Shown here piece by piece: positions 15,630-49,429 of a DNA stretch of 55,033 bases. This DNA comes from a virus. The stretch's first letter is position 1, and the number at the start of each line of letters is the position of its first letter. The DNA lies in UHGV virus genome UHGV-0072939, one strand, 5' to 3'. The notes under the pieces are model-generated. The model worked only from the letters and a program-made list of their open reading frames with translations. It was not told the DNA's origin and did not search any database. The translations under genes and the position numbers were made by a program.

Positions 15630-16031
15630 TCAGGAAACGGGTGCCTGAATGCTGTCGCGCAGGAAAATCGCCAGCGGGCGCAAGGCTGTCTTCAGGTCCG
15701 CAACAGTCCAGGAGGCATCAATAATGATACGGTTCTGGTTGAACTCACCCATCAGGTAAACACCGCCGGACTGATCGCCGTGCGTGGTGGCATCCACATC
15801 ATCCACCAGAATGGCGCAGGGCTTTTCGCTGCCATCGGTGGCAGTTTTCACGCAGGCCGTGTACTTCATGGAAGCCGTAATCTGCCCCAGCACAGTACCG
15901 CGCTTATAAATACCGCCGGTAATGGTGCCGGTATCAGTCACCAGCTGCAGATTACCAGCAACAAGCTGATCCGGCACAAACAGCGAACTTTTCATACCCG
16001 GCGCAAACGGACTTTGACCAAACTGATCCAT
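15630..16031 (-). CDS. head decoration protein, lambda gpD-like
   Basis: 133 aa; lies between scaffold and major capsid genes as in lambda C-Nu3-D-E. Confidence 0.6.
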   Translation of the reverse strand: MDQFGQSPFAPGMKSSLFVPDQLVAGNLQLVTDTGTITGGIYKRGTVLGQITASMKYTACVKTATDGSEKPCAILVDDVDATTHGDQSGGVYLMGEFNQNRIIIDASWTVADLKTALRPLAIFLRDSIQAPVS

Positions 16032-16609
16032 TATTTTTCCCCTTTCACAGAGTTGTAGAGGCTGGTCATCTTGCCCACCAGCGCAGATTTACCAGTCTGT
16101 TTTTCACCGTCCGGGTTCAGGCGCGCCTGGTGACTGGCCTGCATACGTTCATCCAGAGAACGACCGCGCTTAGGCTGCGATGCCGGCGCCTGCGAAGCCA
16201 TGACGTTGATGGCTGCAGCAGAGCTCATGCCGGTATTAAAAGCGAGCGATGCGGCAAGCGCTGGGTTGGCGGCAGCATGCGGGCTACCGAAGATACGGGC
16301 GCAGCGCTTACGCTCTGAAATACGCGCCTGGCGGCCAGACTTACTTTCTTTTCGGTCATCGCCATCATCGTCTTCAGCGTCCGGATCGTCTTCATCATCC
16401 TCTGCATCCGGATCGTCATCTTCGGCGCTTTTATCACGGTCATCGTCTTCCGCATCATCATCGCGCTCATCGTCTTCAGCATCGTCCTCGCGGTCATCTT
16501 CTTCCGCTTTACGTGCCTTCGATTTTTTGGTTTTTTTATCTTCATCTTCTTCTGATGCCGATTTTCCAAAACCCAGCAGGTGAGCAAAACTCGTCGTTTT
16601 CTTTGCCAT
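16031..16609 (-). CDS. scaffold-like protein with long acidic Asp/Glu repeat tract
   Basis: 192 aa; between protease and decoration genes; contains EDDREDDAEDDERDDDAEDDDRD... encoded by short DNA repeats. Confidence 0.5.
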   Translation of the reverse strand: MAKKTTSFAHLLGFGKSASEEDEDKKTKKSKARKAEEDDREDDAEDDERDDDAEDDDRDKSAEDDDPDAEDDEDDPDAEDDDGDDRKESKSGRQARISERKRCARIFGSPHAAANPALAASLAFNTGMSSAAAINVMASQAPASQPKRGRSLDERMQASHQARLNPDGEKQTGKSALVGKMTSLYNSVKGEK

Positions 16610-25607: not shown

Positions 25608-26660
25608 TTATGTCTGGTTGAGCGCCTGCAGCTCGCTGACCGTCTGAATAAATCGCTCGGTCTCAAGCTCTACGCCGATCGCCCGGCGCCCAAGCTCCAT
25701 TGCCGCTTTCACGGTGGAACCCGAGCCCATAAAAAAATCGGCTACCGTGTCGCCCGGCCTGCTGCTGGCGCTGATAATCTGCCTGAGCATGTCAGCAGGT
25801 TTTTCGCAGGGATGCTTCCCCGGGTAAAACTGCACAGGCTTGTGGGTCCATACGTCGGTATACGGAACCGAGACGGATACAGAGAAACAGCGCCGGAGAG
25901 TTTTGTATTCCTCCAACAGCGCTGAATATTTCCGGTTGAGCGACTGGTATGTGCCCACCAGCTGGTGGTGTGGATGTTCAAGTTCCTGCCGCTGGTGCTT
26001 TTCTGCCGCGATGCGGGTGAACAGCTGCTGCAGCGTCAGGTAATCATTCTCGTTCGGTAACTGCCACTGGCTGGCGCTAAACCAGTGCGAGACCATATTC
26101 TTTTTGCCCGTGGCGTCGGCGATAGCTTTGCTCGTTACGCCAAGTGCCTCGCGGGCGTTGCGGAAATAGTCAATCAGCGGCGTCATGACATGCTGCTTGA
26201 GCTCGTTGCTTTTGCGGTCGTAACCGTCATCCTTCTCTTTGTATGGTCCCGTGTGATGTTCAGCAAAAAGAATACGCTCGGTTGCCGGGAAGTAAGCGCG
26301 AAGGCTTTCTTTATTACAGCCATTCCAGCGGCCAGAGGGCTTTGCCCAGATAATATGATTCAGGACGTTGAACCGCGCCCGCATCATGATTTCAATATCA
26401 GATGCCAGTCGATGCCCGGAGAACAGATACAGGCAGCCGGCTGGTTTAAGCACTCGCCAGAATTCCGCCAGACATCCGTCAAGCCAGAGCAGGTAGTCCT
26501 CATCCCCTTTCCACTGGTTGTCCCATCCGTCCGGTTTCACTTTGAAGTAAGGCGGATCGGTAACAATCAGGTCAATGGAGTTGTCCGGGAGAGAAGCGAT
26601 GAAATGCAGACAGTCAGCGTTGATTAACTCAACACTGTTTATTTTTACAGTATTTTTCAT
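25608..26660 (-). CDS. orphan DNA methyltransferase, amino-methyltransferase (N6-adenine or N4-cytosine) with DPPY motif
   Basis: 350 aa; DPPY near N-terminus and FFMGSGST (AdoMet-binding) near C-terminus, i.e. beta-class motif order; no adjacent restriction endonuclease gene. Confidence 0.8.
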   Translation of the reverse strand: MKNTVKINSVELINADCLHFIASLPDNSIDLIVTDPPYFKVKPDGWDNQWKGDEDYLLWLDGCLAEFWRVLKPAGCLYLFSGHRLASDIEIMMRARFNVLNHIIWAKPSGRWNGCNKESLRAYFPATERILFAEHHTGPYKEKDDGYDRKSNELKQHVMTPLIDYFRNAREALGVTSKAIADATGKKNMVSHWFSASQWQLPNENDYLTLQQLFTRIAAEKHQRQELEHPHHQLVGTYQSLNRKYSALLEEYKTLRRCFSVSVSVPYTDVWTHKPVQFYPGKHPCEKPADMLRQIISASSRPGDTVADFFMGSGSTVKAAMELGRRAIGVELETERFIQTVSELQALNQT

Positions 26661-30943: not shown

Positions 30944-31330
30944 TCAGGCGGCTGCACCCGCCGGTTCGTATTGGCTGATCGTTATCTCAACCCTGCCTTT
31001 CGTCACCACTGGCCCCCACTCCACCAGCATGCGTTTTACCTGGCTGTCATCCTCCCACACGCCAGCATGTGTCAGCGCGTCAAACAGCGCTTTGTTGTAG
31101 TTGTCCAGATCCCGGCGGCGCGCGTCCGGCGGATACAGGGTGATTTCGACTGCAGCAGGCGCTGTTGATGGCTTCGGCAGCCTGCGCAGCTGCTCAATGA
31201 TCGCCGCGCAGGCCGCGCTCTGGTATTTGCGGCCGTCAGCACTGATAAGATGGCGCCCGGCCAGCGGCCCCTTGTTAGGGGCGCGCCAGTAGGTGTTAAC
31301 GCTCGGAGGAAACGGCAGCACCAGCTTCAT
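30944..31330 (-). CDS. rusA: Holliday junction resolvase RusA-like
   Basis: about 128 aa from ATG 31330 (MKLVLPFPPSVN...), characteristic RusA N-terminus and DxDN-containing core. Confidence 0.8.
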   Translation of the reverse strand: MKLVLPFPPSVNTYWRAPNKGPLAGRHLISADGRKYQSAACAAIIEQLRRLPKPSTAPAAVEITLYPPDARRRDLDNYNKALFDALTHAGVWEDDSQVKRMLVEWGPVVTKGRVEITISQYEPAGAAA

Positions 31331-33366
31331 GCCACCTCCCGCTGCGGATCCGCGCACATCTCAGGTAAGTTTGCCTCCACCAGCGCGCGGGCGAATGGTG
31401 GCGGGACGGCGTTGCCGCAGCGCGCGACCTGCTTATCCTTCGCGTAGCGGTTGCCCCGGTAGTCCTGATCGATAACGTAGCCATCCGGGAAGCCCTGGGC
31501 TTTGTACAACTCATGGGGCTGCAACATACGCATGCCGATATCAACAATCTGGTACTTAACACCCTCGATCGTCACCAGCCATTCGTCTTCGCTTTCCCCG
31601 CAGTAGGTTTCCAGGAATGTCCGAACCTCCCCTACATGCTGGCCGCCGGCGGTGATGGTTGGCATCGGTTCGTCCAGGCGCTGCCCGTCGCGGCATGTTC
31701 CCCTTAATTTGATTAGATGCGACGTCACCATCGCGCTATCAGCTTTTGTAGTCAGGGTTTGAATAGGCTCACTTACATCCCTAGGACGGCTCTGCCCGGC
31801 ACGACCGCCTACACCTACGACCTGTGCACTTACAAGTGCGTGGTGATCGACCGTCGTCACGGAGTGTGCTGGCTCATCCAGACCCACGCCCGGGCCCGTA
31901 TAATTCCCGCCGTAGTGCTTCGCCAGGAATGCGCTCACCGTTGCAAACTTATTGCCACCAGCGGTAACTGTGCCCAACGGGGTATCGATTTTCAGCACGT
32001 GCGGCTGCTGCCCCGGACGCTCACCGTAGCCCATCTGTATCAGGGTTGGTGTAACCAACTGGGATTTACCGCCACCACCCGCTGTGATGGTCGCACTCGG
32101 CTCATCCGCCCGGTGGCCGATACTGGCGCCGAACTGGCGGGCAATCACTGGCGTAACCAGGCAGGCGCGGGATTGCTTCAGGATAGTGTGGGCAGGCTTA
32201 TTCAGCGCGCGCGGCTTCGCCTGGTATTCGCTGCCGCCGTTGCCAGCCAGGAATGGTGTCAGCGCCGCCTCAACAACGCCTAGGGCATGACCATTCCCGC
32301 CCGGACGCGCCGATGTGCCAGCGGTCACCGTAGGAACCGGTTCGGTAACGGGTTGCCCGGTTGCGCCGGTGCGGAATTTAGTCAGGTGCGGTACCGCTAT
32401 CGCGTAGCCGTGGGTTTTGGTGATGGTCTGCAGCGGCGCGCCCAGCTCCTGACCACGAAAACAGTCATAGCTACCTTTCGTCGTGGTGTGGTTACATTTC
32501 ACGATGAACGGCGAGGCGCTCTCGATGACAAACCGCTGGATACCGCGCGCAATACGCTTCAGGGTATTTTCTGCCAGGGGCTTTTTGCGATCGAAGATAG
32601 AAAGCGCCGGGATATTCCAGTCGATACACTCCGCCGCGGTGCGCCACGGCGCCAGCCTGCCGCTCTGCACTTCCAGTGATTTCGGATCCCCGTGGGTCGG
32701 TTCAGGCCAGTGAATGGCTTTACCATCGCAGCGCATGACCATAAAGAAACGGCGACGGATTGTCGGCGCGCCATAGTCGCACGCGCGCAGCTCGCGATAA
32801 TCGACGTCATAGCCGAGCCCGGCAACCAGCTGTTGCGCCTGCCCGCTGCCAGGTTCAATAGAGAGAAATTCGCAGACCTCAGCCAGCGCCGGATGATCTG
32901 CCGGGATCCCCGTTGACAGCATAGCGACAAACGCCGTGAACGTTTCGCCAGCACGCGCAGGATCCGGGCGCATTTCGTCAGCCAGCAGCGGCCCCCACGT
33001 TTTAAACTCTTCGACGTTCTCCAGCATCATTACGCGTGGTCGCTTCGCCAGCGCCCAGCGGATAACTACCCACGCCAGCCCGCGGATTTCCTTCTTCACC
33101 GGCTTCGCGCCTTTCGCCTTTGAAAAATGGCGGCAGTCGGGGCTGAACCATGCCAGGCCAACAGGATGCGCGCCAGTGGCAGCAACCGGATCCACATCAA
33201 ACACCGATTCGCAGTAATGCAGCGTGTCGGGGTGGTTGGTCTTGTGCATGGCGATGGCGTTTTCGTCGTGGTTGATGGCAATATCCACGCTGCGCCCTAT
33301 GGCGAGTTCGATCCCGGTAGAGGCACCGCCGCCGCCGGCGAAGTTATCAACGATAATTTCACGCAC
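31327..33366 (-). CDS. DNA cytosine-5 methyltransferase with long C-terminal extension
   Basis: 679 aa; motif I FAGGGG, motif IV-like SPDCRHFS, motif VI ENV (MLENVEEF). Confidence 0.8.
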   Translation of the reverse strand: MREIIVDNFAGGGGASTGIELAIGRSVDIAINHDENAIAMHKTNHPDTLHYCESVFDVDPVAATGAHPVGLAWFSPDCRHFSKAKGAKPVKKEIRGLAWVVIRWALAKRPRVMMLENVEEFKTWGPLLADEMRPDPARAGETFTAFVAMLSTGIPADHPALAEVCEFLSIEPGSGQAQQLVAGLGYDVDYRELRACDYGAPTIRRRFFMVMRCDGKAIHWPEPTHGDPKSLEVQSGRLAPWRTAAECIDWNIPALSIFDRKKPLAENTLKRIARGIQRFVIESASPFIVKCNHTTTKGSYDCFRGQELGAPLQTITKTHGYAIAVPHLTKFRTGATGQPVTEPVPTVTAGTSARPGGNGHALGVVEAALTPFLAGNGGSEYQAKPRALNKPAHTILKQSRACLVTPVIARQFGASIGHRADEPSATITAGGGGKSQLVTPTLIQMGYGERPGQQPHVLKIDTPLGTVTAGGNKFATVSAFLAKHYGGNYTGPGVGLDEPAHSVTTVDHHALVSAQVVGVGGRAGQSRPRDVSEPIQTLTTKADSAMVTSHLIKLRGTCRDGQRLDEPMPTITAGGQHVGEVRTFLETYCGESEDEWLVTIEGVKYQIVDIGMRMLQPHELYKAQGFPDGYVIDQDYRGNRYAKDKQVARCGNAVPPPFARALVEANLPEMCADPQREVA

Positions 33367-34258
33367 TGGTCACCCCCTGTATGCTGCTGACCAGTCCACC
33401 AGCAACCGTTATGATTTCGCTGGTTGGCATACGCTCGAGCCACAGCTGGTTAATGTTCGCTTTCAGCTTGTTCTGCTGCGATGCATCCAGAGAATCCGCC
33501 CCCTCAACCTGGTTGAACACCAGACCAACCTCAAGCGGCCAGATACGCGAATCCACATCAGGTAATGCTGCTGGCGCTACAATGGGTTCTTCTTGCTCTG
33601 GCGCCGTGGTGGCTGGTGGCTGAACCTTACCCGCGGCAAATTCGACAAGCGCCATGAAAGCCTGGCCTTTAGCCTCCAGCTCTGTGCGGTGGATATAGCT
33701 GAAGCGCTCGCCGCGCCAGGTCTTGTCAAACACAGCGATGGCGCCCGCAAAAAATGCGCTGGTGGGCTGCTGCTTGTCGTCTACAGGTACAAACCATTCC
33801 GGAAGGTCAAAACCGATGCGACCGCGGATGAAAACAATGTGGTCTGCATCTTCCGGCCACCATGTTTCGCTTGGTGCTGCTTTGACCAGAAACACATAGC
33901 GACCGCCCTTCTCTCGCATGGCCATCGTGTGGTTAATGATGTGGGTCATCCCGGTGATTGCCTGCTTTTCGTGGTACTGCGATCGGCTGTATGGCGGGTT
34001 AGCAAACGCGGCGCCGCCGAGTTCCGCCAGGCGCTCAGACCAGTCCTGCGTCAGCGCGTTGTCTTCTGCGGTATACCAGGCAGGGCATTTAGCGTTGCTG
34101 TCGTCGGCAAAGAGGTCCAGCACCAGCGGGCCAAACATCGCATTAATCCCCCAGAACAGCAGCTCCGGCGTGCGCCACTGATCGCCAACTTCTTTCAGCT
34201 TGTGAGCGTTCCTGCTGCGCATTTCCGCCAGCGCCTGGCAGTATTTATTTTCATTCAT
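33359..34258 (-). CDS. phage Dam-type N6-adenine DNA methyltransferase with extra C-terminal domain
   Basis: 299 aa; FANPPYS motif and N-terminal WRTP...DLFA pattern of phage N6A-MTases. Confidence 0.75.
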   Translation of the reverse strand: MNENKYCQALAEMRSRNAHKLKEVGDQWRTPELLFWGINAMFGPLVLDLFADDSNAKCPAWYTAEDNALTQDWSERLAELGGAAFANPPYSRSQYHEKQAITGMTHIINHTMAMREKGGRYVFLVKAAPSETWWPEDADHIVFIRGRIGFDLPEWFVPVDDKQQPTSAFFAGAIAVFDKTWRGERFSYIHRTELEAKGQAFMALVEFAAGKVQPPATTAPEQEEPIVAPAALPDVDSRIWPLEVGLVFNQVEGADSLDASQQNKLKANINQLWLERMPTSEIITVAGGLVSSIQGVTSA

Positions 34259-35115
34259 CCCCTGAACCCCTCAGGAATCTTGGTATCAACTGGCCCGAAC
34301 TTCACAGGATCATGCTTACGAGCTGCATCCCAGTACTGGCGCTCCGGGCGGCCTTTGCTATCCCAGCGGGTAGCGCTGGACAGGTACCCTTCGAACTTTT
34401 TCGGCCCAAACAGGGTTTCAGGACGCATGTACTGGTACTGCTCATCGTTGCCGTTCCAGTGCTCGTGCTTCAGGTCAATAACCAGCTTCAGGTCATTGAC
34501 GCTGTAACCTTCCCGCAGACGGGCGCGGATGTTTTCCAGCGAGGTCCTTGATTTCTGGTAGCGCGATCCGCTGACCTGGTTCAGATGGAGCAAAACTTCA
34601 ATCGCATGGTCAGTAATCACCACTTCCGGGTCGGGTTGCGCAGCAACCGGACAAGAAGGTTTTTTATTTACTGATGGATCAGTAGTTGTATTTACTGACG
34701 GATCCCCGCCAGATCCTGACGGGTGAAAACGCCCCTTTTTGCCGGATTCTGATGCATCAGATTTTGACGGGTCAGATTTTGATGCGTCAGAATTTGACGT
34801 GTCAGAATCTGACAGGTGAGAAAAGGCCGCAGCCTGAAGCTTTGCCACATTCAGCTGGTAAACGTTTGAAGCATTGCGGTTACCGTTGCGGCGTTGTTTG
34901 CGTGACAACCAGCCCTCCTGCTCAAGCTTACCGATGGCGGTACGTACGGTGCTTTCCCCCGCCCCTATCTGCCGGGCAATGGTCCCGATAGACGGCCAGC
35001 ACACGCCCTCGTCACTGCTGAAGTCGGCCAGGCGCGCCATGATGGCAACGCTGGACAGCTTCATGCCAGAAGCGGCGCAAGCGTCCCATACGTAGCCGGT
35101 TAATTTAGTGCTCAT
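34255..35115 (-). CDS. replication initiation protein (lambda O-like role), ori iterons inside the gene
   Basis: 286 aa; N-terminal winged-helix-like region, low-complexity SD-rich linker encoded by iteron-like repeats, conserved C-terminal phage replication domain. Confidence 0.7.
   Translation of the reverse strand: MSTKLTGYVWDACAASGMKLSSVAIMARLADFSSDEGVCWPSIGTIARQIGAGESTVRTAIGKLEQEGWLSRKQRRNGNRNASNVYQLNVAKLQAAAFSHLSDSDTSNSDASKSDPSKSDASESGKKGRFHPSGSGGDPSVNTTTDPSVNKKPSCPVAAQPDPEVVITDHAIEVLLHLNQVSGSRYQKSRTSLENIRARLREGYSVNDLKLVIDLKHEHWNGNDEQYQYMRPETLFGPKKFEGYLSSATRWDSKGRPERQYWDAARKHDPVKFGPVDTKIPEGFRG
34667..34818. repeat. iteron-like direct repeats (about eight copies of a 15-bp unit with core CTGA(C/T)G); candidate replication origin
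   Basis: tandem units TCAGATTTTGACGGG / TCAGATTTTGATGCG / TCAGAATTTGACGTG / TCAGAATCTGACAGG read directly at 34758-34818, with further copies upstream to 34667. Confidence 0.55.
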
Positions 35116-35287
35116 GGTCGTTCTTTATCTCCCTGAACTTGCGCTGAAACTGCTCGAGCGGGCTGAAACATTCACCGTGTTCATAGTCCTCGCGCAGGTA
35201 GATAACGCGCCTCGTTTCTGGCTCCCAGCGAATAACACGGACGGGCACGCCGTGGTGGTCTTTGAACCTTCGGTTAACTTCGCGCAT
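35105..35287 (-). CDS. hypothetical small protein (60 aa)
   Basis: ORF only; overlaps replication gene start. Confidence 0.35.
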   Translation of the reverse strand: MREVNRRFKDHHGVPVRVIRWEPETRRVIYLREDYEHGECFSPLEQFQRKFREIKNDHEH

Positions 35288-35459
35288 AAGCGTTTCGCCT
35301 TCCTGTAGTAAACACCCACAATTGCGGCCGCCCGACTGTGGTTACATGGCACCCAGCGGTTTGATATTCTGCGTTCATACCGAAACAGCGGAGTTCCCTG
35401 CACCGGGATCATCCTCAGTTGCGGTAAACGGTTAAAAGCCGTTAAACTGGTCATGCGGA

Positions 35460-36026
35460 TTATTTCTCCATACACGAAGAGTTGTTCGCCAAGGCGCCCG
35501 GAGCTGCACACTCGCGGGCGTCACTTTTTTCCGGCGCACAAAACACACGAAACAGCAGCGTCAGATGCTCCTGCCACTTCGCCATCACCTGGTAACTGTT
35601 CTCTTCGATTTGCTCACGTTCTGCCGGGTCAATAACGCCGTCAGCGGTCGCCTTGCGCAGGTACTGTGAGTGTCTGCCGATCCATTCGATTGACTCCATC
35701 AGGCGCTGGTTGATGTCACCGTTGTCGACGTCATCAATGTCCACCAGCGGCACAAACACACCACCGCTACGGCGGGCTATCGCATCGGTGACGTACTTAG
35801 TGCCGCTGGCATCCTGCAGCACCATCGCCCACTCAAGCGGGAAAATCTGGTCGCCTTCGCTGCGCAGCCGGTTATAGAGCGCATCGGTTGAAACTTTTCC
35901 GGCGCGATACAGGCCAAGCCATTCAGCAGCTTCGGCATATCCGCCAGGCATTTCGGCGATAGTCCGTTTAATGGCAGCCACCAGCCAGGCGGGCTGTCGT
36001 TCGACTTTCCAGTGTTGTTTATCCAC
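35460..36026 (-). CDS. regulatory protein in the CII position (possibly YdaT-like); start uncertain
   Basis: ORF 35460-36128; GTG at 36026 with AAGGGG SD is the favoured start, to limit overlap with the cro-like gene. Confidence 0.4.
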   Translation of the reverse strand: MDKQHWKVERQPAWLVAAIKRTIAEMPGGYAEAAEWLGLYRAGKVSTDALYNRLRSEGDQIFPLEWAMVLQDASGTKYVTDAIARRSGGVFVPLVDIDDVDNGDINQRLMESIEWIGRHSQYLRKATADGVIDPAEREQIEENSYQVMAKWQEHLTLLFRVFCAPEKSDARECAAPGALANNSSCMEK

Positions 36027-36054
36027 GGTTGTCCCCTTGTTTCTGTGGTATTCG

Positions 36055-36252
36055 TTAAGCGACTGTCTGATTAGACTTTTGATAAAGAACGGAGCTGTAC
36101 TTGAGCTTTCCTTTCGTGATCCGCTCAATCACAAAAGCTTGCTTCTCGGGGATGATCTCCCCCCATCGACAAACTGCTGGATGGGAAATACCTAATGCAT
36201 TAGCAGTTTTGGCTACTCCGCCGAAGTGCTCTATGACTTCAGATTTGCGCAT
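36055..36252 (-). CDS. Cro-like HTH repressor
   Basis: 65 aa, AGGAGG SD, HTH (VAKTANALGISHPAVCRW); divergent from the cI-like gene. Confidence 0.7.
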   Translation of the reverse strand: MRKSEVIEHFGGVAKTANALGISHPAVCRWGEIIPEKQAFVIERITKGKLKYSSVLYQKSNQTVA

Positions 36253-36277
36253 GATTCCTCCTGGTTACCTTACGCAC

Positions 36278-36348
36278 CACAAGGTAACAAAAGGTACATT
36301 AAATAGCAAACAACAGTTACCATCAAAAGAGGTAACATTGGTTACATG
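36278..36348. promoter_or_regulatory. operator-like AGGTA direct-repeat pairs in the cro/cI intergenic region (OR-like)
   Basis: AAGGTAACAAAAGGTACATT and GAGGTAACATTGGTTACATG read directly; same unit recurs downstream of cI. Confidence 0.45.
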
Positions 36349-37005
36349 AAAACAGAGATGAAAGACCGTATTCGTTCGCGTCGAGTCCAGCTCGATATGA
36401 CTCAGCTTACCCTTGCCAAAAAGCTTGGGGTCAGTCGCGTGTCTGTAACGAAATGGGAGAATGGAACAACGAAGCCGGATGGTGAGAATTTACACCAACT
36501 TGCTGGTGTACTTCAGGTAACCCCGGAATGGATTCTCTATGGCAAAGGAGATGCTGACGTTGATGATATCAAATTAGTCCCCTTCCTTAAGCCGCCAACA
36601 GCAGTGCCTATTATATCAGCCGTTCAGGCTGGTTTATGGACAGAAACCTACGCCAGTTCAAGGCTTACAGACGTGATTGCATGGACACAAACTACAGCTA
36701 ATGTATCTGATGAGGTTTTCGGGTTAGTGGTCCGCGGAGAGTCAATGACTAACCCTCATGGATTGCCATCAATTCCAGAAGGTTCCATTGTTATCGTTGA
36801 ACCACATTTCGGGCAAATTGATGATCTTTACGGGAAAATAGTCGTTGCCACACTGGAAGGCTCTACCGAAGCGACTGTAAAAAAATTAGTGTGGGATAGC
36901 CCATTCGCCTATCTCATGCCACTTAACCCAGCTTTCAAGCCTATCCAAATTGACGGAAACTGCCGAATTGTCGGCAAAGTCGTCCAAATAACCCAGAACA
37001 TTTAA
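36346..37005 (+). CDS. CI-like prophage repressor (HTH plus S24 peptidase domain)
   Basis: 219 aa; N-terminal HTH (LTQLTLAKKLGVSRVSVTKWENG), C-terminal GESM...K (VVRGESMTNP, KKL) LexA-type autocleavage domain. Confidence 0.85.
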   Translation: MKTEMKDRIRSRRVQLDMTQLTLAKKLGVSRVSVTKWENGTTKPDGENLHQLAGVLQVTPEWILYGKGDADVDDIKLVPFLKPPTAVPIISAVQAGLWTETYASSRLTDVIAWTQTTANVSDEVFGLVVRGESMTNPHGLPSIPEGSIVIVEPHFGQIDDLYGKIVVATLEGSTEATVKKLVWDSPFAYLMPLNPAFKPIQIDGNCRIVGKVVQITQNI

Positions 37006-37020
37006 CCCCCCAGATATGTA

Positions 37021-37047
37021 GCCAAAGTTACCTTTGGCTATTTTTTT
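37021..37047 (+). terminator. intrinsic terminator downstream of the cI-like gene
   Basis: GCCAAAG-TTAC-CTTTGGC hairpin followed by TATTTTTTT. Confidence 0.7.
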
Positions 37048-37053
37048 ACCCCT

Positions 37054-37109
37054 AAAGGTAACATTAGGTACATTTCACGCTTGACCATCAAGGTAACTAA
37101 AGGTACATT
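37054..37109 (+). promoter_or_regulatory. candidate early rightward promoter with overlapping operator repeats (PL-like)
   Basis: two AGGTAAC-N-AGGTACATT repeat pairs; TTGACC (37081) 17 bp upstream of TACATT (37104). Confidence 0.4.
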
Positions 37110-37847
37110 CAATCCATCAACAGCGAACAGGCAGGACGCCCACGAAGTAGCCGCCGGTGGCATACGAAAAACCGGATGATTCGCTGACAGGTGTCTTCGG
37201 GAGGGGTAACAGGGTCGCGGCCTGATTAACCGCTACTCGTAGTCAAATTCCTACAGCTGGTGGCGATACCCAAGCCAGGAATACCTAAAACCAGCAGGGA
37301 GTGTTAAGGACAAGGGCTAATCATCCCCCTTAGCACCCCGCCCGAAGATCCCTGTTATTGCCAACGACCCTTTCTGGCGGCCCGTGTTTTCCCTTATGTC
37401 CGCGGTCACCGCCAGCTTTTTCAGGGCACAACATGCAAGCGCATTCTATCTAACATCGGTCGTGGGGACTGGTTTGTAACTGAAAGAGTGCGCTTCCAGT
37501 TGTGATGTGCTCAAGCGAGCTGCAGCGCCGGCCGACGCAAAGACCTGTGAATCGGCTTAGCCGCAGTTTCTGGCGGCCAATACCAAAACAGAGCGGCAGG
37601 AAGTAAGCGGGTTAGCGACCCGGTGTCACAACGTTCAATCCCGATAAGCACCCTTGCGAGGATGTTTATCGGGACTGGAAGAGTTACCACTTGGAGACGG
37701 TCCTTATAAATGTCCTGGGAAGTGGCGCTTTGGTCGCGATAACAACCACTCCAGTTGATCCTGGGAGTTATCAGGTCAGTGAGCTGCCAGCACTCTCGAC
37801 GGCAGTGACGGCGGGAAGTAGACCGCTGACAGCTGGGAAAGACCAGC

Positions 37848-38410: not shown

Positions 38411-39241
38411 ATGTCCCAGATTTTAGACGGCAATGCCCTGCAGCAGGTGAAAGACCTGGTTCTTTCCGGTTACCACCTGACTGCTGTTAAAGAAACGGCA
38501 TGCCCTACCGCCCTTCTCCCTGAAGGCGTAAACGTTGAAAGCCTCGAGCGTTTCGACCTGGAGCGTTTTCGTTTCCGCGGCGCCATGACCACAACCAGCA
38601 TTCCTGATTTTGTGCGTTATGCGGCTGGCTACGCCAACGAGGCCGAACCAGCGCGCTGCTTTATCGATGCTGACAACATGACCGCACGCTCCGTCTTTAA
38701 TATCGGTACGCTGGCTAACCCAGGCCATGCTGATAACGTCGCCTCTATCACCCTCAAAAAGACAGCACCATACCGAGCCCTGCTCCAGATTAACGGTGAT
38801 CGTCTGGGTCAGAAAGAAATAGCTGAGTGGCTGGAAGACTGGGCCGACTACCTCACCGCATTTGATGCCGACGGGAATGTATTGTCCATCGCGCAAGCAG
38901 CTGGTGCTGTTCGCCGCGTCAACATTAAACAAGTCTCAGAAGCAGCTCATGAAGACGAAGACTTTGGCGGCAGAAAGTCCCTGATGCAGAGCGTTGAAGC
39001 CAGCAGCAAAGACGTCATGCCGGTGGCCTTTGAGTTCAAATGCGTGCCATATGAAGGCCTGGGCGAACGCCGCTTTAGTCTGCGCAATAGCCTGCTCAAA
39101 AGTGGGGAACCGATATTTGTGCTGCGCATTGTTCAACTGGAAGCCCAGGAAGAAGCTATCGCCAATGAGTTCCGAGATCTGCTGATCGAGAAATTCACCG
39201 ATAAGCCGGTAGAAACCTTCATCGGTAATTTCAAAGCGTAA
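38411..39241 (+). CDS. YfdQ/DUF2303-like early protein
   Basis: 276 aa; recalled resemblance to CPS-53 prophage YfdQ; followed by HD-domain gene as in that prophage. Confidence 0.45.
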   Translation: MSQILDGNALQQVKDLVLSGYHLTAVKETACPTALLPEGVNVESLERFDLERFRFRGAMTTTSIPDFVRYAAGYANEAEPARCFIDADNMTARSVFNIGTLANPGHADNVASITLKKTAPYRALLQINGDRLGQKEIAEWLEDWADYLTAFDADGNVLSIAQAAGAVRRVNIKQVSEAAHEDEDFGGRKSLMQSVEASSKDVMPVAFEFKCVPYEGLGERRFSLRNSLLKSGEPIFVLRIVQLEAQEEAIANEFRDLLIEKFTDKPVETFIGNFKA

Positions 39242-39377: not shown

Positions 39378-39917
39378 ATGAGCTATATCCAGACACTTTC
39401 TGGCAAGCATTTTGACTACATCAACGCCACCACTGACGATATTGATATCGAAGATATCGCCAACGCGCTTTCTAATATCTGTCGCTTCGCCGGCCACCTG
39501 CCGGAGTTCTACAGCGTCGCCCAGCACTCTGTGCTAGCCAGCCAGATTGTACCGCCTGAGCTTGCCCTGGAAGCGCTGCTGCACGATGCGGCGGAAGCCT
39601 ACTGCCAGGACATTCCGGCGCCGCTGAAAGCCCTGCTGCCGGATTACCGCCGCATTGAAACGGAGGTGGATGACTTGATCCGCAGCAAGTTCAACCTCCC
39701 GATGCACCAGACGGACGTGGTGAAGTATGCCGACCTGATGATGCTGGCCACTGAGCGGCGCGACCTCGAGATCGATGACGGGTCAGTGTGGCCCTGCCTC
39801 GAGGGTATCCCCTGCTCCGATATCGTGCAGATTGTCCCGCTGCGACCGGGCCAGGCGTTTGGTCTTTTCATGAATCGCTTTAACGAGCTGATGGAGATCC
39901 GCAAATGCGCCGCCTGA
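39378..39917 (+). CDS. HD-domain phosphohydrolase (YfdR-like 5'-deoxynucleotidase)
   Basis: 179 aa; H...HD...D metal-binding pattern (AQHSV, LLHDAAEAY). Confidence 0.6.
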   Translation: MSYIQTLSGKHFDYINATTDDIDIEDIANALSNICRFAGHLPEFYSVAQHSVLASQIVPPELALEALLHDAAEAYCQDIPAPLKALLPDYRRIETEVDDLIRSKFNLPMHQTDVVKYADLMMLATERRDLEIDDGSVWPCLEGIPCSDIVQIVPLRPGQAFGLFMNRFNELMEIRKCAA

Positions 39918-40120
39918 AGGTGAAAGAACTTGTCACAGAGGCGCATGCCGCTGTGCCGGGACTACCACCAGCTACAGCAGCGCTGATGCGCGAGATGGCG
40001 ACCAGACTCGATGTCACCTTTACAGCATTGACCGAGTTGATGGATCAGCGGGTGGCGCTTATGGCTGAAATCGAATGTCTGCGTGACAGCAGCAGCGTTA
40101 GTAAGGAGCGTGCAGCGTGA
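39905..40120 (+). CDS. hypothetical small protein (71 aa)
   Basis: ORF overlapping neighbours by a few nt; no family recognised. Confidence 0.35.
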   Translation: MRRLKVKELVTEAHAAVPGLPPATAALMREMATRLDVTFTALTELMDQRVALMAEIECLRDSSSVSKERAA

Positions 40121-40944
40121 CAGTTCATACATTAAGACAATGTCGTCCAGACCAGGAAGAGACAGAGTATTTCTGGAAACTTTTTCATGCTGCGCAGCGT
40201 AATGATGCTCGTTGGCACGGCAGTGAAATCGGCTTTATTGCTGAAGAACTTTCCCGCACGGATTTGGACCGCAACCAGAAGCTCTTTCTCCTGCGCGCCT
40301 GGCAGGTGCTCGTCGATGATAAAGGCGGGTTTGGGCGCTTTATGGGGGCGTTCGATACCTATGTGTTCAATATGCAGGATCCTGATGATGACTGCGTAGC
40401 GTGGAAACCTGAACTGAGCAAGCTGCTACAGGACGGTGATCTGCTGGATGTTGTGCTGGAGGCATATACCGAAGCGCAACGGCGCATCGCCGAGTTGGAA
40501 GCCAGAACGCTGGCAGTGAAGCTGCTAGATGAGTTTTACACCATCGCCGAAAATATCCACACTCAGGACAACCGGATCACTTCAGACCCGATGTTTTGCG
40601 TATACCAAAAGCGTGAAATTGTTGTCGATGCAGACTACGACTATGACCGCATTGTATGGGTTGATGAAGAAGGCAATGAAGCCAGCCCGCACCAGAGCGC
40701 GCGTCTTGAATTACTCCATGAAAACTTTCGCGAGCCGCCTGAAAAATGGCGCAGAATTGCGGTGAAAGAGATTGATGATTTCGTTACCTGCTGCTTTACC
40801 GAGCAGGGTTGCAAAGACTACTTGGCGTGCAATGGCCATAATCTTCGCCTGCCATTTATCTACGTAAAAAGCGGATTCAGGAATGCTGAATACATCGGCC
40901 TTCGAAACTGGTTAGCTGGCATCACTGTAAGCGAGGGAGAGTGA
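40117..40944 (+). CDS. hypothetical early protein (275 aa)
   Basis: ORF with ATGA-type coupling; no family recognised. Confidence 0.4.
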   Translation: MTVHTLRQCRPDQEETEYFWKLFHAAQRNDARWHGSEIGFIAEELSRTDLDRNQKLFLLRAWQVLVDDKGGFGRFMGAFDTYVFNMQDPDDDCVAWKPELSKLLQDGDLLDVVLEAYTEAQRRIAELEARTLAVKLLDEFYTIAENIHTQDNRITSDPMFCVYQKREIVVDADYDYDRIVWVDEEGNEASPHQSARLELLHENFREPPEKWRRIAVKEIDDFVTCCFTEQGCKDYLACNGHNLRLPFIYVKSGFRNAEYIGLRNWLAGITVSEGE

Positions 40945-41859: not shown

Positions 41860-42425
41860 ACCACTTAATGATCGACCTCGAAACCATGGGTAACAAGCCA
41901 AAGGCGCCAATTGTCTCCATCGGTGCCGTGTTGTTTGACCCGCAGAGCGGCGCGCTGGGCGAAGAGTTTTACACGGCCGTGCAGCTCGAAAGTGCAATGG
42001 TACAAGGCGCGGTTCCTGACGGTGACACCATCATCTGGTGGATGAAGCAAAGCCCGGAAGCCAGAGCAGCGATTTGCGCTGATGATGCTATGCCTGTAGA
42101 TGCAGCGCTTTCCGAGTTGAGCCACTTCATCAACCGTCACGCGGACAACCCGAAATATTTGAAGGTGTGGGGCAATGGCGCAAACTTCGACAACGTCATT
42201 ATTCGAGGCGCGTACGAGCGTGCCGGCCATATTTGCCCCTGGCAATTCTGGAACGATCAGGACGTGCGCACGATGGTGACCCTCGGTCGCGCTATTGGCT
42301 TCGACCCGAAGCGGGATATGCCGTTTGATGGTGAGGTGCATAACGCGCTGGCCGACGCCCGCCACCAGGCCAAATATGTTTCTGCTATCTGGCAGCGACT
42401 GGTGCCCACCAGCACCGAAGAGTAA
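41856..42425 (+). CDS. DEDDh-type 3'-5' exonuclease
   Basis: 189 aa; IDLETMG (exo I) and HNALADA (exo III) motifs. Confidence 0.75.
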   Translation: MNHLMIDLETMGNKPKAPIVSIGAVLFDPQSGALGEEFYTAVQLESAMVQGAVPDGDTIIWWMKQSPEARAAICADDAMPVDAALSELSHFINRHADNPKYLKVWGNGANFDNVIIRGAYERAGHICPWQFWNDQDVRTMVTLGRAIGFDPKRDMPFDGEVHNALADARHQAKYVSAIWQRLVPTSTEE

Positions 42426-42467
42426 AGGTAAATGCCCGGGTGCAGCCGGGCTGTGTGGAGAAACTAC

Positions 42468-42839
42468 ATGACCAAGTTGATCAACAAAAAAGTATGCGCC
42501 CTTACCGGACGACAGCGACAAGTTCTGGACTTTGTTACCCAGTACATCGCCAGTCACGGTATGCCACCCACTAAATCTGAAATCGCTGTCGGGATGGGAT
42601 TTTGCTCGACAAATGCAGCTGTTGAACACTTACGCGCATTGGAGAAGAAAGGCTTCATAGAGATACGTACTGGTGTTTCGCGCGGGATCATGCCTGTAGC
42701 AAAGCGAGAAATATCGCTACCATCCACCAGCAATGAAGATTACTGGTTTGATGGCACTTTTCAGCATCGGCGCTATGAGCGTGATATATGCAAAGCAGTT
42801 GAAGCGATGGGATTAAAGGTTTTGGGGGGTGGATCATGA
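42468..42839 (+). CDS. LexA N-terminal DNA-binding-domain homologue lacking the peptidase domain
   Basis: about 123 aa from ATG 42468 (GGAG SD); LTGRQRQVLDFVTQYIASHGMPPTKSEIAVGMGFCSTNAAVEHLRALEKKGFIEIRTGVSRGI closely parallels the LexA winged-helix domain; no GDSM/KR domain follows. Confidence 0.7.
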   Translation: MTKLINKKVCALTGRQRQVLDFVTQYIASHGMPPTKSEIAVGMGFCSTNAAVEHLRALEKKGFIEIRTGVSRGIMPVAKREISLPSTSNEDYWFDGTFQHRRYERDICKAVEAMGLKVLGGGS

Positions 42840-43045
42840 ATCTTGAATGCGTACCCATATCAACTTACTGCCGTGACTCCGGCGAGACCGTAGAAGCTGT
42901 TAATAAACGGATACAAAGGGGATTATGGCAGGAAGGGGTCCATATATTAAAGATCGATGGCGTAAAAGAGCGCTGGATTGATTTAACTGAGGTCACGAAA
43001 TGGGCGAGAAAAAACAAGGATCCTTACAGCTCCCACGCGGTATAA
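42836..43045 (+). CDS. excisionase-like protein
   Basis: 69 aa immediately upstream of and overlapping the integrase gene. Confidence 0.5.
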   Translation: MNLECVPISTYCRDSGETVEAVNKRIQRGLWQEGVHILKIDGVKERWIDLTEVTKWARKNKDPYSSHAV

Positions 43046-44175
43046 CCGCGCGCCATCATAAGAACGGCTCAACACTTATTATCACGTTCACATATAAAGG
43101 GGTTCTATGCCGGGAACCCCTTTCCCGTATCGAGCTGAATCCAAAGGGTATAAAATATGCAGAACGCCTCCTGGGAGAGGTTCAGAACAGAATTGCGGAG
43201 GGTGATTTCGATTATGCCAAATACTTCCCAAAATCTAAGAAGTTGGATATTTTTGGGAAAGTTAACCGGACAAAAAACATCAAGTCTTATCTCGATGAAT
43301 ATCTGGAGATCTGCGCAAATCGAAACTTATCGCCATCGACAATTGGAGGGTATGAAAAATGCCTCTCAGCTCTGTCTGATTTACATAAACTACACGTCGC
43401 CGAGCTTACACCGGCAGTATTGAAAAACTGGATCGCCAGCCGGAAAACAAAGCTTAAAACGATACGAAACAACCTCTCATTTTTGCGTAGCGCAATCGAT
43501 GAGGCAGTGACTGATGGGCTGTTGACGATAAACCCGGTTACGCTTGTCAGCGCCAGCCGGTACCACGTGATCGACAGCACGCCGAACCCCGACGATTACG
43601 AGGTGGATCCGTTCACACCTGCAGAGGCCAGCGCCATTTACATGCACTGCAGGTTTCAGGAATGGGAAAACCTGTTCCGCTTTGCATTTAACACCGGGAT
43701 GCGTAGTTCTGAACTGTGCGCGTTGCGCTGGCCTGATATCGACTTTATCGAGAATACTGCTCACGTTCAGGCAGCCAGCGTTGTCGGTGTGCTGAAGGGT
43801 ACCAAGACAAAAGCTGGTACCCGTAAAGTCGAGCTGAATAGCGATGCGCTGTCGGCGCTGCAGGCGCAAAAGCCATTCACCTTTATGAAGAGCGATTTCA
43901 TCTTCAGCGATCCTAAAACAGAGAAACCATGGGCAAACGCTGATGCGATTCGAAAAAAGGCCTGGGTCCCCACGTTGAAGAAAGCAGGAGTTCGGTACCG
44001 AAACCCATATCAAACACGCCATACGTTCGCTACGCGCCACATCAGCCAAGGCGTTAACCTTTTCTGGTTGGCCGGGCAAATGGGGCACAAAGGACCGGAA
44101 ATGTTGTTCCGTCACTATGGTTCCTACCTGGCTGCTTATGATGGGAAAACGGCAATTGAAGCGAGGAAATTTTGA
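43000..44175 (+). CDS. tyrosine integrase (lambda Int family)
   Basis: 391 aa; C-terminal catalytic region with R...HTFATRH...Y pattern (RHTFATRH, HYGSY). Confidence 0.9.
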   Translation: MGEKKQGSLQLPRGITARHHKNGSTLIITFTYKGVLCREPLSRIELNPKGIKYAERLLGEVQNRIAEGDFDYAKYFPKSKKLDIFGKVNRTKNIKSYLDEYLEICANRNLSPSTIGGYEKCLSALSDLHKLHVAELTPAVLKNWIASRKTKLKTIRNNLSFLRSAIDEAVTDGLLTINPVTLVSASRYHVIDSTPNPDDYEVDPFTPAEASAIYMHCRFQEWENLFRFAFNTGMRSSELCALRWPDIDFIENTAHVQAASVVGVLKGTKTKAGTRKVELNSDALSALQAQKPFTFMKSDFIFSDPKTEKPWANADAIRKKAWVPTLKKAGVRYRNPYQTRHTFATRHISQGVNLFWLAGQMGHKGPEMLFRHYGSYLAAYDGKTAIEARKF

Positions 44176-44479: not shown

Positions 44480-47400
44480 TCAGAACGACCAGTTCACACC
44501 AGCTACCGCGTTCCACGGGGATTCCACACCGGCACTATGGCTATACCCCACCCCAAGATGCCCGCTTAACGTACTGCTGAATGAGGCTTTAATACCTGCC
44601 TGGTATATTCCACGTCTGCCCGACAAATAATTGACGAAATTACCGTCACTATTCACTTTCACCCGGTTATCATCGACAAATTCTTTGCGCACAGCCGCCT
44701 TCAGCCACGGCTCAACTTCCATACCGTTCCCCAGACGCATGTTGTAACTCAGCGTTGCGCCCAGTTCACGATATATACTGCGGGTATCGACTGATTTCGA
44801 TTTCATGCCATTGGATAAATGATATTCGGGGTTATCAGCGGTGAACCCCGTTAACGATGCATACGGCGTCAGGTTCCAGTTACCATCGGTAAATCGCATC
44901 CCGGTTTCAATGTGACCGCCCAGCCCGTTGCTGTGGTAACTGCCATTGGCGGCTCCACCGCTGCTCATTTTACCTGCTACGTTACTTTTAAAACGGTTCA
45001 GCTTCACGACACCGTCCAGATAGAAACCACTTTCATGTTCCCAACTGGCATAGCCGCCCAGAGAATAACTGCCCACACTGCCATGTCCTCCGCGATCAAA
45101 ACCGATATGTGAATGGGAATAGCCCATAAAAGCGCCTAGCGTGGTAATTCCTTCAGGAATATCATTACGGCTGTCGATCCCCACTGTCATTCCGGTCAGC
45201 GTCTGCTCAAACCCGGCACCCGCATCGGTGGTGACATTATTACGGGTGTTATACGTCGCCCCCCAGACATTATTGTTGTGTGGACTCGCTTTCATTATGT
45301 TCAACCGCTCGCGAATACTGTTTAGCTCAGCATCAAATACCAACGGTAATGTTGCTGCCATATTGAGTACGGCTGCCGTAGAAGGCGTAATGCGTTTCTC
45401 CGGAACGGGTGTCGGCGTTGGATCGGGAGTAGGGTCTGGTTTTGGATTTGGGTCTGGCTTTGGATCGGGTTTTGGGTCTGGCTTTGGATTTGGGATGGGG
45501 TCCGGGTTGGGTTTGACATCATTGGTCAGGTTCCAGTTGCTGTTGCCGTCACTTTTCAGGACATACTCATAGGTCCCAAGATCAACGAAACCGCCGGTAT
45601 TGCCCAGCGTAAACGAAGCATCCCCTCCCCCTGTTTTCACCAGCGTCATCGCGTCGTCAGACTGTGGGCTGACGCCGGTATCCTGAACAAAGATTTTAAA
45701 ATTACCAGTGGCGTTGTTGTTGACGACCAGTTGATCGCCCCGGGAGCCTGCAACGTTGGTATGCAGGTAGAAATTACCGCTACCGGAAAGTTCATTGGTT
45801 GTCAGCGTATTGTAGATACCGTTAGTTGTGGCAGGCGCTGCTGTTTGTGCTGACAAATAAACATCACCGTCGTTGAGTAGCAAACTGTTTACTCTATATT
45901 CGCAGTTGCTGGTACCTGCACAGGAATTATTGCTGTTAAGCCAGACACTGCCCCGGCTGGCAGCCGTCAGGTCGGCAAGCGTGGTATCGACGCCATTTCC
46001 CAGAGTCAATGTCGCGCTATCGGTAATCCGGACCGCCCCTTCGAGTTTAACTGGCGTAACATTATCCCGTGGCGTCATTAACGACAGGCTTCCTGTCGCG
46101 CCACTGACCGATGCATCCGCCAGCGTACCTGCGTAGACGATTGCCGTACCGCCAGCGACCTGGAGATCTTCTGCCCGGGCCAGAGCCTGAAACTCATCTT
46201 TTGACCGCCCAAGGGTATATTGCCCGCCAGAGTTAACCTTTGTGGCGGAGTCCTGACCCAGGTTTTGCATTGCCCCACCCTTGCCAACCGTGGAGTCGCG
46301 AGCTTCGGTACCTGCTAATACCAATAAATTACCGCCATTTTCCAGCAACATATTAGTCGCTAAATTGCCGGAAATGGAAAAAGTACCGTACTGGTGAGTA
46401 CCGCTGATTTCAATACCGTTAGCCGTGCTCGTCTGGAGAGCGGCACCGCTGTTCTGGACGATATCTGTCGCTTTGCCATTATCGTTGACTGTCAGCGTAC
46501 CGCCTTCATTGATCTTTGTTTTTATTGCCTCTCCGTTAGCTGAAACTGTTTGTATTCCGCCGTCGTTAATTGTTGTCTCATTCGCCACACCCTCGACAAT
46601 TTGTTCACCGCCGGTGAGCGTCGTGCCTGTCGCAGTGGCTTTTGTTTTGACGATCTCCCGTCCGCCCATATTGACCTGTGTTTTGTCAGAAGAGGTGTCT
46701 GACTCCACGGTTAACACGCCGCCATTTGCCAGCAGGATATTGTTCGCCGCACCCTGCTCGATGCTGAACGCGACGCCATCCGCGCGTGTTCCTGTGACCC
46801 GCGTCGCCCTGGTGGTTGCAACCAAAGCGCCCTGGCTACTCTGCTGTATCCCCGTTGCGCTGCCTTTCTCCCGCACATCGAGTGTGCCGCCGTCATTAAG
46901 CACCGAGTTTTCAGCCAGACCGCCCTCATTAACTACCTGTGAACCCCCATTAATAATGGAACCTTCCGCTGTCCCGTTTGCCATAATTTGTTGTAGGCCA
47001 GAGACGATATCGGTATTGATTGCCTTACCATAATTCTGAACGGTTTGCGTGCCACCATTGATGTGTGTTTTCTCTGTTGACCCACCATCAACAATTTGTT
47101 CACCACTTTCGATATTTGCTTCAGTGGCTAAACCATATACCGTTTGCTTGCCACCTTTGATATTTGCTTTATCAGAAGTGGCACTGGCATATATTGTTTG
47201 GGTGCCAGCACTATTGAGTACAGTGCCAACATCTTTTCCATAAACATCCATTTTGCCGTTGGCATTAATAATCGTGTCAACTGCGCGGGAACCAGTGACG
47301 ACTGTTAATGAGCCAGCGTTTTCCAGCACTACATTTTTAGCTTCTGAATTCCTGATGTAGAAAGCATCACCATAACTGTTGGTTCCTTCGATAAGTGTTC

Positions 47401-49060: not shown

Positions 49061-49429
49061 AAATTTCATCCTCTGAAAAGTGAATACTGAGTAGCGTTTA
49101 AGCGACCTTAGCTTTGCTGCAACATCAGCCCACAGGCACCAGACCAGGGGATTCATCCTGAAGAGACAGCGCAAGTGTATTGTGTTCACCGCTCATCAAA
49201 GACATCATGATGAAATGATGATATTCCGCATAAGAATGAGGCATTTTTTAAACGCAGTGCGCTGAAGTGTGGTTGGATAAAAAAGTCAATCCATTCAGGA
49301 AATACGGGCGTATTCTTTTCTTTCGACAATGAGGCCGTTGGCAAAATAAAATGATTTACATAATCGTTTCTGATGAATATCTTCTGCTCACATAAAAATC
49401 ACACAATAACTTTGAGATCGCAGATTGTT

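Follow-up and report, generated by a model that had tools for sequence, protein, structure and literature searches.

Within UHGV-0072939, a viral genome sequence of 55,033 nucleotides that is called the window here in its full length, a stretch of about 190 bp at 34630-34821 is probably the replication origin of a lambdoid prophage, judging by comparative sequence analysis. This candidate origin lies inside a replication initiator gene (34255-35115, minus strand), a 286-aa open reading frame (ORF) whose product is laid out as a winged helix (aa 1-97), a disordered linker (aa ~99-160), a Phg_2220_C domain (aa 174-245) and the tail IPEGFRG, and it occupies the part of the gene that encodes the linker. 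Its synonymous sites are conserved across Enterobacterales. A preliminary description of the sequence had proposed a candidate origin embedded in the initiator gene, and all the computational tests available lend support to that proposal.

Anatomy of the candidate origin

The phased 15-bp units that had first drawn attention to the gene are borne out by two kinds of repeat search. The program TRF finds an array of period 15 (34757-34822; 4.4 copies, 82% matches, score 76), which it also reads with a period of 30 (34745-34812; score 101), while a second search returns phased copies at 34745, 34760, 34775 and 34790, each exactly 15 bp apart and accompanied by many internal inverted repeats, as well as a further repeat pair, 24 bp apart, at 34662-34704. 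Altogether, five tandem 15-bp iterons occupy 34740-34814, reading in the sense direction, from 34814 down to 34740, TGTCAGATTCTGACA, CGTCAAATTCTGACG, CATCAAAATCTGACC, CGTCAAAATCTGATG and CATCAGAATCCGGCA. Each is dyad-symmetric about CA(R)A-W-T(Y)TG, giving the palindrome CAGAATCTG; the core of a site is CAGA-A-TCTG, with GTCAGATTCTGAC and CCGTCAGGATCTGGCGG as dyad-symmetric examples. The functional unit is this dyad-symmetric core, CAGAATCTG, rather than the 15-mer itself.

Adjoining the array is a 17-bp spacer (34723-34739; sense AAAAGGGGCGTTTTCAC) composed of an A-tract, a G-rich stretch and a T-tract, of which the A-run/T-run pattern is maintained in homologues and the sequence is variable. 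It is followed by a sixth, isolated iteron (34706-34722), the 17-bp near-palindrome CCGTCAGGATCTGGCGG, which scores 16.8 bits on a site weight matrix and is seen as [TC]CAGAATCTGG in nearly all homologues. Then comes an AT-rich stretch that may serve as the DNA-unwinding element (34660-34699), with 27.5% G+C over 40 bp, the lowest value among 40-bp windows of the gene and of the operon at 33359-36252; in the 55 kb as a whole, just 3% of such windows are equally AT-rich. Two boxes of the minus strand, 24 bp apart, are associated with it: box A (GATCCGTCAGTAA, 34692-34704), which combines the left half-site of an iteron with GATC inside the AT-rich stretch, and box B (GATCCATCAGTAA, 34668-34680). 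Their common motif, GATCCRTCAGTAA, has just these two copies against 0.06 expected. A palindrome at 34632-34650, CCGGTTGC-TGC-GCAACCCG, whose synonymous sites are partly constrained, lies at the start of the C-terminal module. The preliminary description had counted about four core copies upstream of the phased units; upstream copies do exist, but there are three of them, one full dyad site and two half-site boxes.

These sites are confined to the candidate origin. The palindromic core YCARAWTYTGR has four occurrences in the 55-kb window, all in the array, compared with an average of 0.56 in shuffled sequences, none of which would cluster within 56 bp. Likewise, the weight matrix, built from homologues alone with the window excluded, identifies six sites in the window, all at 34705-34816 and scoring 13.8-27.1 bits, the best elsewhere reaching 9.6 bits. 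GATC sites are located at 34677, 34701 and 34712, in the AT-rich part of the candidate origin, and their conservation and nearness to a phage Dam gene hint at methylation-sensitive origin control. The reading as a DnaA-dependent origin is unsupported, as the DnaA box consensus TTWTNCACA occurs twice in the window against 4.2 expected, both times far from the candidate origin, with none near it.

Selection on the DNA and exchange of modules

As the preliminary description stated, all copies fall within the initiator coding sequence and encode a Ser/Asp linker, made up of S-D-x-S-K units at aa 99-153 (SDSDTSNSDASKSDPSKSDASES...FHPSGSGGDPSVNTTTDPSVNKK). A scan of one genome per species yielded 80 loci with relatives of the N-domain at 58-94% identity, spanning Escherichia/Shigella, Enterobacter, Citrobacter, Kluyvera, Pantoea, Erwinia, Yersinia, Rahnella, Providencia and Proteus. 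Homologous initiators had been named as the place where absence of the repeats would count against an origin; the linker repeats are present in 76 of the 76 usable homologous genes. When synonymous codon diversity is measured at conserved amino-acid columns across 56 full-length homologues, ranging from Escherichia to Proteus, Yersinia and Pantoea, it amounts to 0.02-0.23 over aa 101-160 (34636-34815) and to 0.36-0.69 in both folded domains, and per-codon data widen the constrained stretch to about aa 99-162. For the block FHPSESGGDPSVNSKxDPS (a 26-codon block, 14 columns) mean diversity is 0.12, versus 0.58 over 63 N-domain columns (Mann-Whitney p=2.6e-7).

Codon choice follows the same pattern. 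The 341 pentapeptide units in the 76 genes share the DNA consensus TCT GAC nCn TCA AAA, with Lys encoded by AAA in 227/227 cases, the second Ser by TCA in 288/321 and the first Ser by TCT in 233/260. Within the boxes, Asp is GAT (76/76), Ser is TCA (63/63) and Val is GTA (75/75); the GATC of box A is invariant and that of box B is kept in 67/76 homologues, Asp always being GAT before CC. None of TCA, TCT and GTA is known to be a favoured synonym in E. coli. Per gene, the strict core is found 0-7 times (4-6 times in 58 of the 76) and outside the linker in none of them, most often at 15-bp spacing (163 cases), with spacings of 48, 30 and 33 bp also found. In the Proteus locus L071, the isolated site is itself repeated, as CCAGAATCTGG three times at a 33-bp period encoding GFHPPESGVQG, and the constant feature is therefore the DNA core, not the peptide; the same site occurs twice in L074, and in the Providencia locus L073 one copy is degenerate. 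Taken at the level of codons, the comparison indicates that selection acts on the DNA, beyond the needs of the protein.

An alternative without any DNA-level function would hold that the repeats are merely a low-complexity Ser/Asp linker, generated by replication slippage of a five-codon unit. The 15-bp period is indeed in frame, homologues have between 2 and 9 units, and the linker is predicted to be disordered: in an AlphaFold model built from 41 sequences (mean pLDDT 59), aa 103-158 fall below pLDDT 50, with 10-residue block means of 31-46, compared with 63-84 for the winged helix of aa 1-97 and a helical C-domain. This alternative is nevertheless contradicted by synonymous sites that are far more conserved than in the folded domains, by codons fixed across genera on non-favoured synonyms, by the dyad symmetry of the core and by related modules that carry 22- and 23-bp repeats at the same position, and we consider it very improbable.

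These related modules emerged from a profile search with the C-domain, which retrieved proteins with about 80% identical C-domains and unrelated N-termini. Relatives that combine the same C-domain with another N-domain have different repeats at the same position. In type B, represented by P0130 and locus L085, GAGGTCAAARTG recurs every 23 bp in five or six copies, and the AT-rich stretch after them contains TACAGAGAATAMAA twice and has no GATC. Type C, which 16 viral contigs carry (L092 and L095 are examples), repeats CGCAGAATCGCGGAAC five times at a period of 22 bp; the AT-rich stretch that comes next has CAGATCATYA three times, GATC likewise being present three times (at ~1441-1478 in L092 and L095). 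Neither 22 nor 23 bp is a whole number of codons, so these are DNA repeats and not peptide repeats. Both types, and type A as found in the window, join at CCTTCTTGTCCGGTTGC-N3-GCAACC(C/A)GACCC, with which the shared C-domain begins and within which the palindrome lies (window 34632-34650).

Exchange is seen in the other direction as well, with the type-A N-domain and its iterons occurring on three types of C-domain. The first is Phg_2220_C (the window, LLS and phiNP); the second is of the lambda-O type (SfIV, SfII and Providencia relatives), in which WANDIRLM and NVLSPxKLRxKW are clearly similar to lambda O; and the third belongs to a Proteus/Providencia clade (L071 and L073-L077) with the same core sites. 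Across these combinations, sequence comparison indicates that the iteron type follows the N-domain type and that the C-domain is exchangeable. Lambdoid O proteins are modular in a corresponding way, in that specificity resides in the N-terminal part together with the origin, and the C-terminal part suits the partner that delivers the helicase.

It could also be argued that the conserved DNA acts through another agent, be it mRNA or single-strand structure, SeqA on hemimethylated GATC, a host nucleoid protein or a recombinase at the mosaic joint. The sense RNA folds much better than shuffled sequences (z=-7.7), the GATC of box A is invariant and that of box B nearly so with a Dam-family gene adjacent, and the region coincides with the joint of C-domain exchange. 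However, the genuine lambda origin folds as an RNA at z=-7.25 (type B at -5.2), so that the fold signal is a by-product of palindromic sites, and variable copy number and spacing leave no single conserved fold. There is no credible Rfam match in 33000-37500, and 34200-36400 holds 2 promoter-like sites against 1.4 expected. Moreover, the repeat type tracks the N-domain of the initiator, making that domain the likely reader, and type B dispenses with GATC in its AT-rich stretch. A separate agent is therefore quite unlikely, and the specific candidate of an RNA element was rejected on the grounds that palindromic binding sites explain its z-score as they do that of lambda.

Two further features within the gene were set aside. 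An antisense terminator-like hairpin at 34721-34734 is unlikely in homologues, where the spacer is variable (judged by eye). Overlapping ORFs at 34686-34991 (plus strand) and 34692-34850 (minus strand, other frame) are not conserved genes, as they reach N-domain codons with freely varying synonymous sites.

A replication module without a helicase loader

The initiator gene is part of a lambdoid early-right operon, preceded by genes for an S24 repressor (36346-37005, plus strand), Cro (36055-36252), a CII/CP76-like protein (35460-36128) and DUF4222 (35105-35287). As stated in the preliminary description, the next gene encodes a methyltransferase: a Dam-family N6-adenine methyltransferase (33359-34258, minus strand; Pfam Dam, E=7e-44) lies directly downstream and overlaps the rep stop codon, and is followed by a 679-aa C5 methyltransferase (31327-33366) whose motifs are separated by a long insert. 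Further downstream lie genes for RusA, Rha/Ant, DUF968 and Q. With an N6_N4-type gene at 25608-26660, the prophage has three DNA methyltransferase genes.

The preliminary remark that no P/DnaC-like loader gene follows also stands, with none found among the downstream genes in Pfam and PHROGs scans. These scans covered 27 other ORFs, from the early, regulatory and integration regions together with a few late or structural ones, and detected no helicase, loader or primase. Among the homologous loci, loader and helicase genes are found only in the divergent Proteus/Providencia clade, where L071, L074 and L075 have both IstB/DnaC-like and DnaB-like helicase genes downstream and only a DnaB-like gene was called in L073, L076 and L077. 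In 40/76 homologous loci, the first ORFs called in the 3 kb downstream of rep include a methyltransferase, which abuts rep in about half of those loci.

The closest phage is E. coli phage LLS, whose O gene is 80% identical at the nucleotide level over its full length and whose gene order, cII-like gene, small ORF, O and methyltransferase, is the same as here. The LLS replication module consists of the O homologue only (PMC12315714), and such O-only modules are carried by 34 of 314 Enterobacteriales lambdoid phages, of which, according to that 2025 paper, none has been studied and whose replication ‘is not yet understood’ (PMC12315714). SfV, SfII, SfIV and the CPS-53 type also belong to this class. 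Neither PMC12315714 nor the SfIV genome paper mentions an origin or iterons, and searches of the literature on initiator-solo modules, Phg_2220_C and SfV/SfII/SfIV origins gave no description of this origin.

A search of plasmid collections for a natural mini-replicon returned prophages in megaplasmids or whole phage genomes deposited as ~40-kb ‘plasmids’. One of these, a circular 44,270-bp ‘plasmid’ of Klebsiella quasipneumoniae (L087, NZ_CP084811.1), is a complete lambdoid phage genome with integrase, and it has the same module of DUF4222, the initiator, a Dam methyltransferase and a C5 methyltransferase, with no other replication gene. These plasmid records are suggestive, though no proof, of an autonomous replicon.

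That the repeats bind the initiator for regulation, as an autoregulatory transcriptional roadblock, for titration and copy control or for exclusion of related phages, with the origin elsewhere or replication wholly dependent on recombination, is a further possibility. Plasmid iterons have control as well as origin roles, and no helicase loader is encoded among the scanned ORFs. Furthermore, Chi sites (GCTGGTGG) number 29 in the window, where 2.07 would be expected; 24 are on the minus strand, and all lie inside the prophage (643-42731), with none in flanking host DNA. Chi richness in one orientation is a hallmark shared with the LLS class, which is Chi-rich and has no Rec module, and LLS grows better with RecBCD (PMC12315714), so that a large share of replication may be recombination-driven. 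Pfam and PHROGs searches of the early-left ORFs gave no recombinase, exonuclease or SSB match, several of these ORFs (for example 40117-40944 and 41865-42629) being without any functional match. Against a purely regulatory role, the motif occurs nowhere else in the window to mark a second origin, the order of iterons, AT-rich stretch and palindrome mirrors the proven lambda origin, the AT-rich stretch is conserved at the DNA level and would serve no evident purpose in a site that acted only as a roadblock or for titration, and clade members with DnaC-like and DnaB-like genes keep the same arrangement. We therefore regard it as unlikely, and favor the reading of the stretch as a replication origin.

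Several observations nonetheless weigh against the origin reading. The literature searched reports no experiment that demonstrates origin activity, or binding by the initiator, in any member of the family. The N-domain has no match to Phage_rep_O (PF04492) or TIGR01610 at E<=0.01 in the same libraries in which lambda O matches them at 5.7e-36 and 5.4e-39, respectively. The spacing of 15 bp sets neighboring sites about 154 degrees apart on the helix, unlike the 20-24 bp of lambda. Three GATC sites in 39 bp are not significant clustering, given 205 in the window, about one per 268 bp; what stands out about them is their conservation alone. Conservation of synonymous sites could arise partly from repeated recombination at the mosaic joint instead of from selection for binding. 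Finally, type-A core copies are all in one frame, and frame alone cannot separate a peptide from a DNA reading; the two are separated because of the synonymous-site conservation and the repeats of types B and C.

On the origin reading, the initiator would be expressed from the Cro/CII operon, and transcription from the Cro-side promoter would cross the origin, as in lambda. Dimers of the initiator would bind the six dyad-symmetric sites (core CAGAATCTG) through the N-terminal winged helix, five of the sites lying head-to-tail at 15-bp spacing and the sixth 34 bp further on. The nucleoprotein complex on this packed array could then strain and open the adjacent 40-bp AT-rich stretch with its two GATC half-site boxes, next to which the C-module-specific palindrome would adjoin the opened DNA. 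Since the scanned ORFs contain no P, DnaC or DnaB gene, host DnaB would have to be brought in by the C-domain of the initiator, that is, by the DnaD-like, remotely lambda-O-C-like Phg_2220_C domain and possibly the IPEGFRG tail, presumably arriving as DnaB-DnaC or through a primosome protein. Later replication would probably proceed via RecBCD and Chi recombination, as in LLS, and any role of Dam methylation is one that we infer.

Three findings bear on this recruitment of DnaB without proving it: weak matches to DnaD-like helicase loader families, the conserved tail and a pair of early-left genes. The tail conforms to D-x-x-[IV]P-x-GFR[GS] and is encoded at 34255-34290 in the window (other examples include loci L005, L013, L022, L029, L032, L046, L059, L072 and L080). 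It is kept on the Phg_2220_C type, in members without a C-terminal extension, and on several proteins with the lambda-O type of C-domain, and the clade that has DnaC-like and DnaB-like genes of its own lacks it. Such a conserved tail may serve to dock a host factor. The early-left operon (plus strand) encodes a YfdQ-like protein (DUF2303; 38411-39241) and a YfdR-like protein (5'-deoxynucleotidase/HD; 39378-39917). YfdR of CPS-53 binds DnaA and inhibits the DnaA-DnaB interaction (PMC4776307), and the YfdQ/YfdR-like genes could be relevant to how the phage obtains host DnaB without a loader. In its fullest form, the proposal of a loader-free lambdoid replicon has the Phg_2220_C/DnaD-like domain and tail capture DnaB-DnaC or a primosome protein, the palindrome serve as the helicase loading site, the GATC boxes couple firing to the phage Dam and the YfdQ/YfdR-like proteins free DnaB from oriC; taken together, these steps make a tentative and rather doubtful whole. 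If true, lambdoid phages would have, in addition to lambda P and P22 gp12, a third route to a helicase.

The prophage extends from about the O-antigen acyltransferase gene (1510-2628) to the integrase gene (43000-44175), the integrase end adjoining a gene for an AIDA/pertactin-type autotransporter of 1569 aa (44480-49189, minus strand) with tandem repeats of periods 12, 18, 24 and 42 bp at 45414-45514. Two adjacent 27-bp tandem-repeat arrays (ATCGTCATCATCGTCCTC...) are located at 16358-16507 in the head-gene region, within a minus-strand ORF (16031-16609), where they would encode an acidic repeat. No identical prophage was found among complete E. coli genomes, the best having 84% identity; the exact initiator protein is present on 19 contigs, and one source names E. 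coli (P0001).

Comparison with lambda and other replicons

By its domains, the initiator belongs among phage replication proteins. In Pfam, its N-domain matches HTH_36 (aa 23-70, E=1.7e-10), with weaker GntR, MarR and DnaD_N matches, and its C-domain matches Phg_2220_C (PF09524; E=2.6e-23, 82.3 bits against a cut-off of 27). TIGR02220 is the only NCBIfam family matched (70.7 bits against a cut-off of 66.65), and the PHROGs families matched are annotated as replication initiation protein, replication initiation O-like and primosomal protein. Solved structures searched by the initiator sequence gave only weak MarR/PaaX winged-helix matches. The C-domain is remotely related to that of lambda O (hhalign probability 79%, E=1.6e-5), in agreement with a published HHpred analysis that assigns HTH_36 and Phg_2220_C to lambda O (PMC5509034). 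On these profile matches, the protein has the architecture of lambda O and an N-domain outside the O family, and the label ‘O-like’ given in the preliminary description thus applies to the architecture and not to the N-domain, which is HTH_36.

Both N- and C-domain also show weak, below-threshold PHROGs matches to families annotated as DnaD-like helicase loader, recalling the DnaD-type initiators and co-loaders of Firmicutes and their phages. Enterobacteria are not known to have a DnaD/DnaB(Bsu)/DnaI pathway, and in an enterobacterial host any partner of the C-domain must therefore differ from the Firmicutes one.

Iteron plasmids such as pSC101, F, P1 and RK2 provide another parallel, as their Rep_3 or TrfA initiators are winged-helix proteins that act on arrays of sites beside an AT-rich unwinding element and depend on host DnaB; the P1 origin, in addition, has GATC-rich repeats. 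Plasmid iterons are typically direct repeats of 17-22 bp, about two helical turns apart and outside the rep gene, whereas here they lie inside the gene at 15-bp spacing. Pfam matches of the initiator do not include Rep_3, and the sole match to a plasmid-type initiator is a sub-threshold one to RP-C (E=0.0046).

In layout, the counterpart is lambda itself. As in lambda, the initiator gene follows cro and cII in the rightward early operon, and in both cases transcription passes first the dyad-symmetric sites between the N- and C-terminal domains, next an AT-rich stretch and finally a palindrome. The four iterons of lambda span nt 349-433 of its O gene (900 nt) at spacings of 20, 24 and 23 bp, and here the sites are at about nt 302-448 of 861. 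The N-domain and iterons form one specificity module, a trait common to lambdoid O-type origins (lambda, 434, 21, phi80 and P22 gene 18). The two differ in that lambda has four 18-bp sites at 20-24 bp spacing, compared with six sites at 15-bp spacing here, in that the AT-rich stretch here, unlike that of lambda, includes two conserved GATC-containing half-sites, and in that P follows O in lambda, whereas here the Dam gene takes that place and no P, DnaC or DnaB gene follows. In addition, the origin-proximal palindrome of lambda (L084 ~655-685), ATTCGTCAGA-GAAT-TCTGGCGAAT, has the half-site CG[TC]CAGA in common with the isolated iteron CCGTCAGgATCTGGCGG (34706-34722), the spacer being 4 nt in lambda and 1 nt here; this likeness may be due to chance or be a remnant of common descent of the linker.

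The O-only group accounts for about one in ten sequenced enterobacterial lambdoid phages and includes serotype-converting Shigella phages as well as a prophage on at least 1,000 contigs, E. coli Nissle 1917 among them. What is new relative to PMC12315714 is the anatomy of the candidate origin and the boundaries of its modules. Its delimited parts, namely the six dyad sites, the AT-rich stretch with GATC boxes and the C-module palindrome, offer defined substrates for footprinting, origin cloning and the search for a C-domain partner, and the loading of DnaB without P or DnaC becomes a directly testable question. The architecture of the candidate origin is that of textbook lambda, and a known principle would thereby be extended, not overturned.

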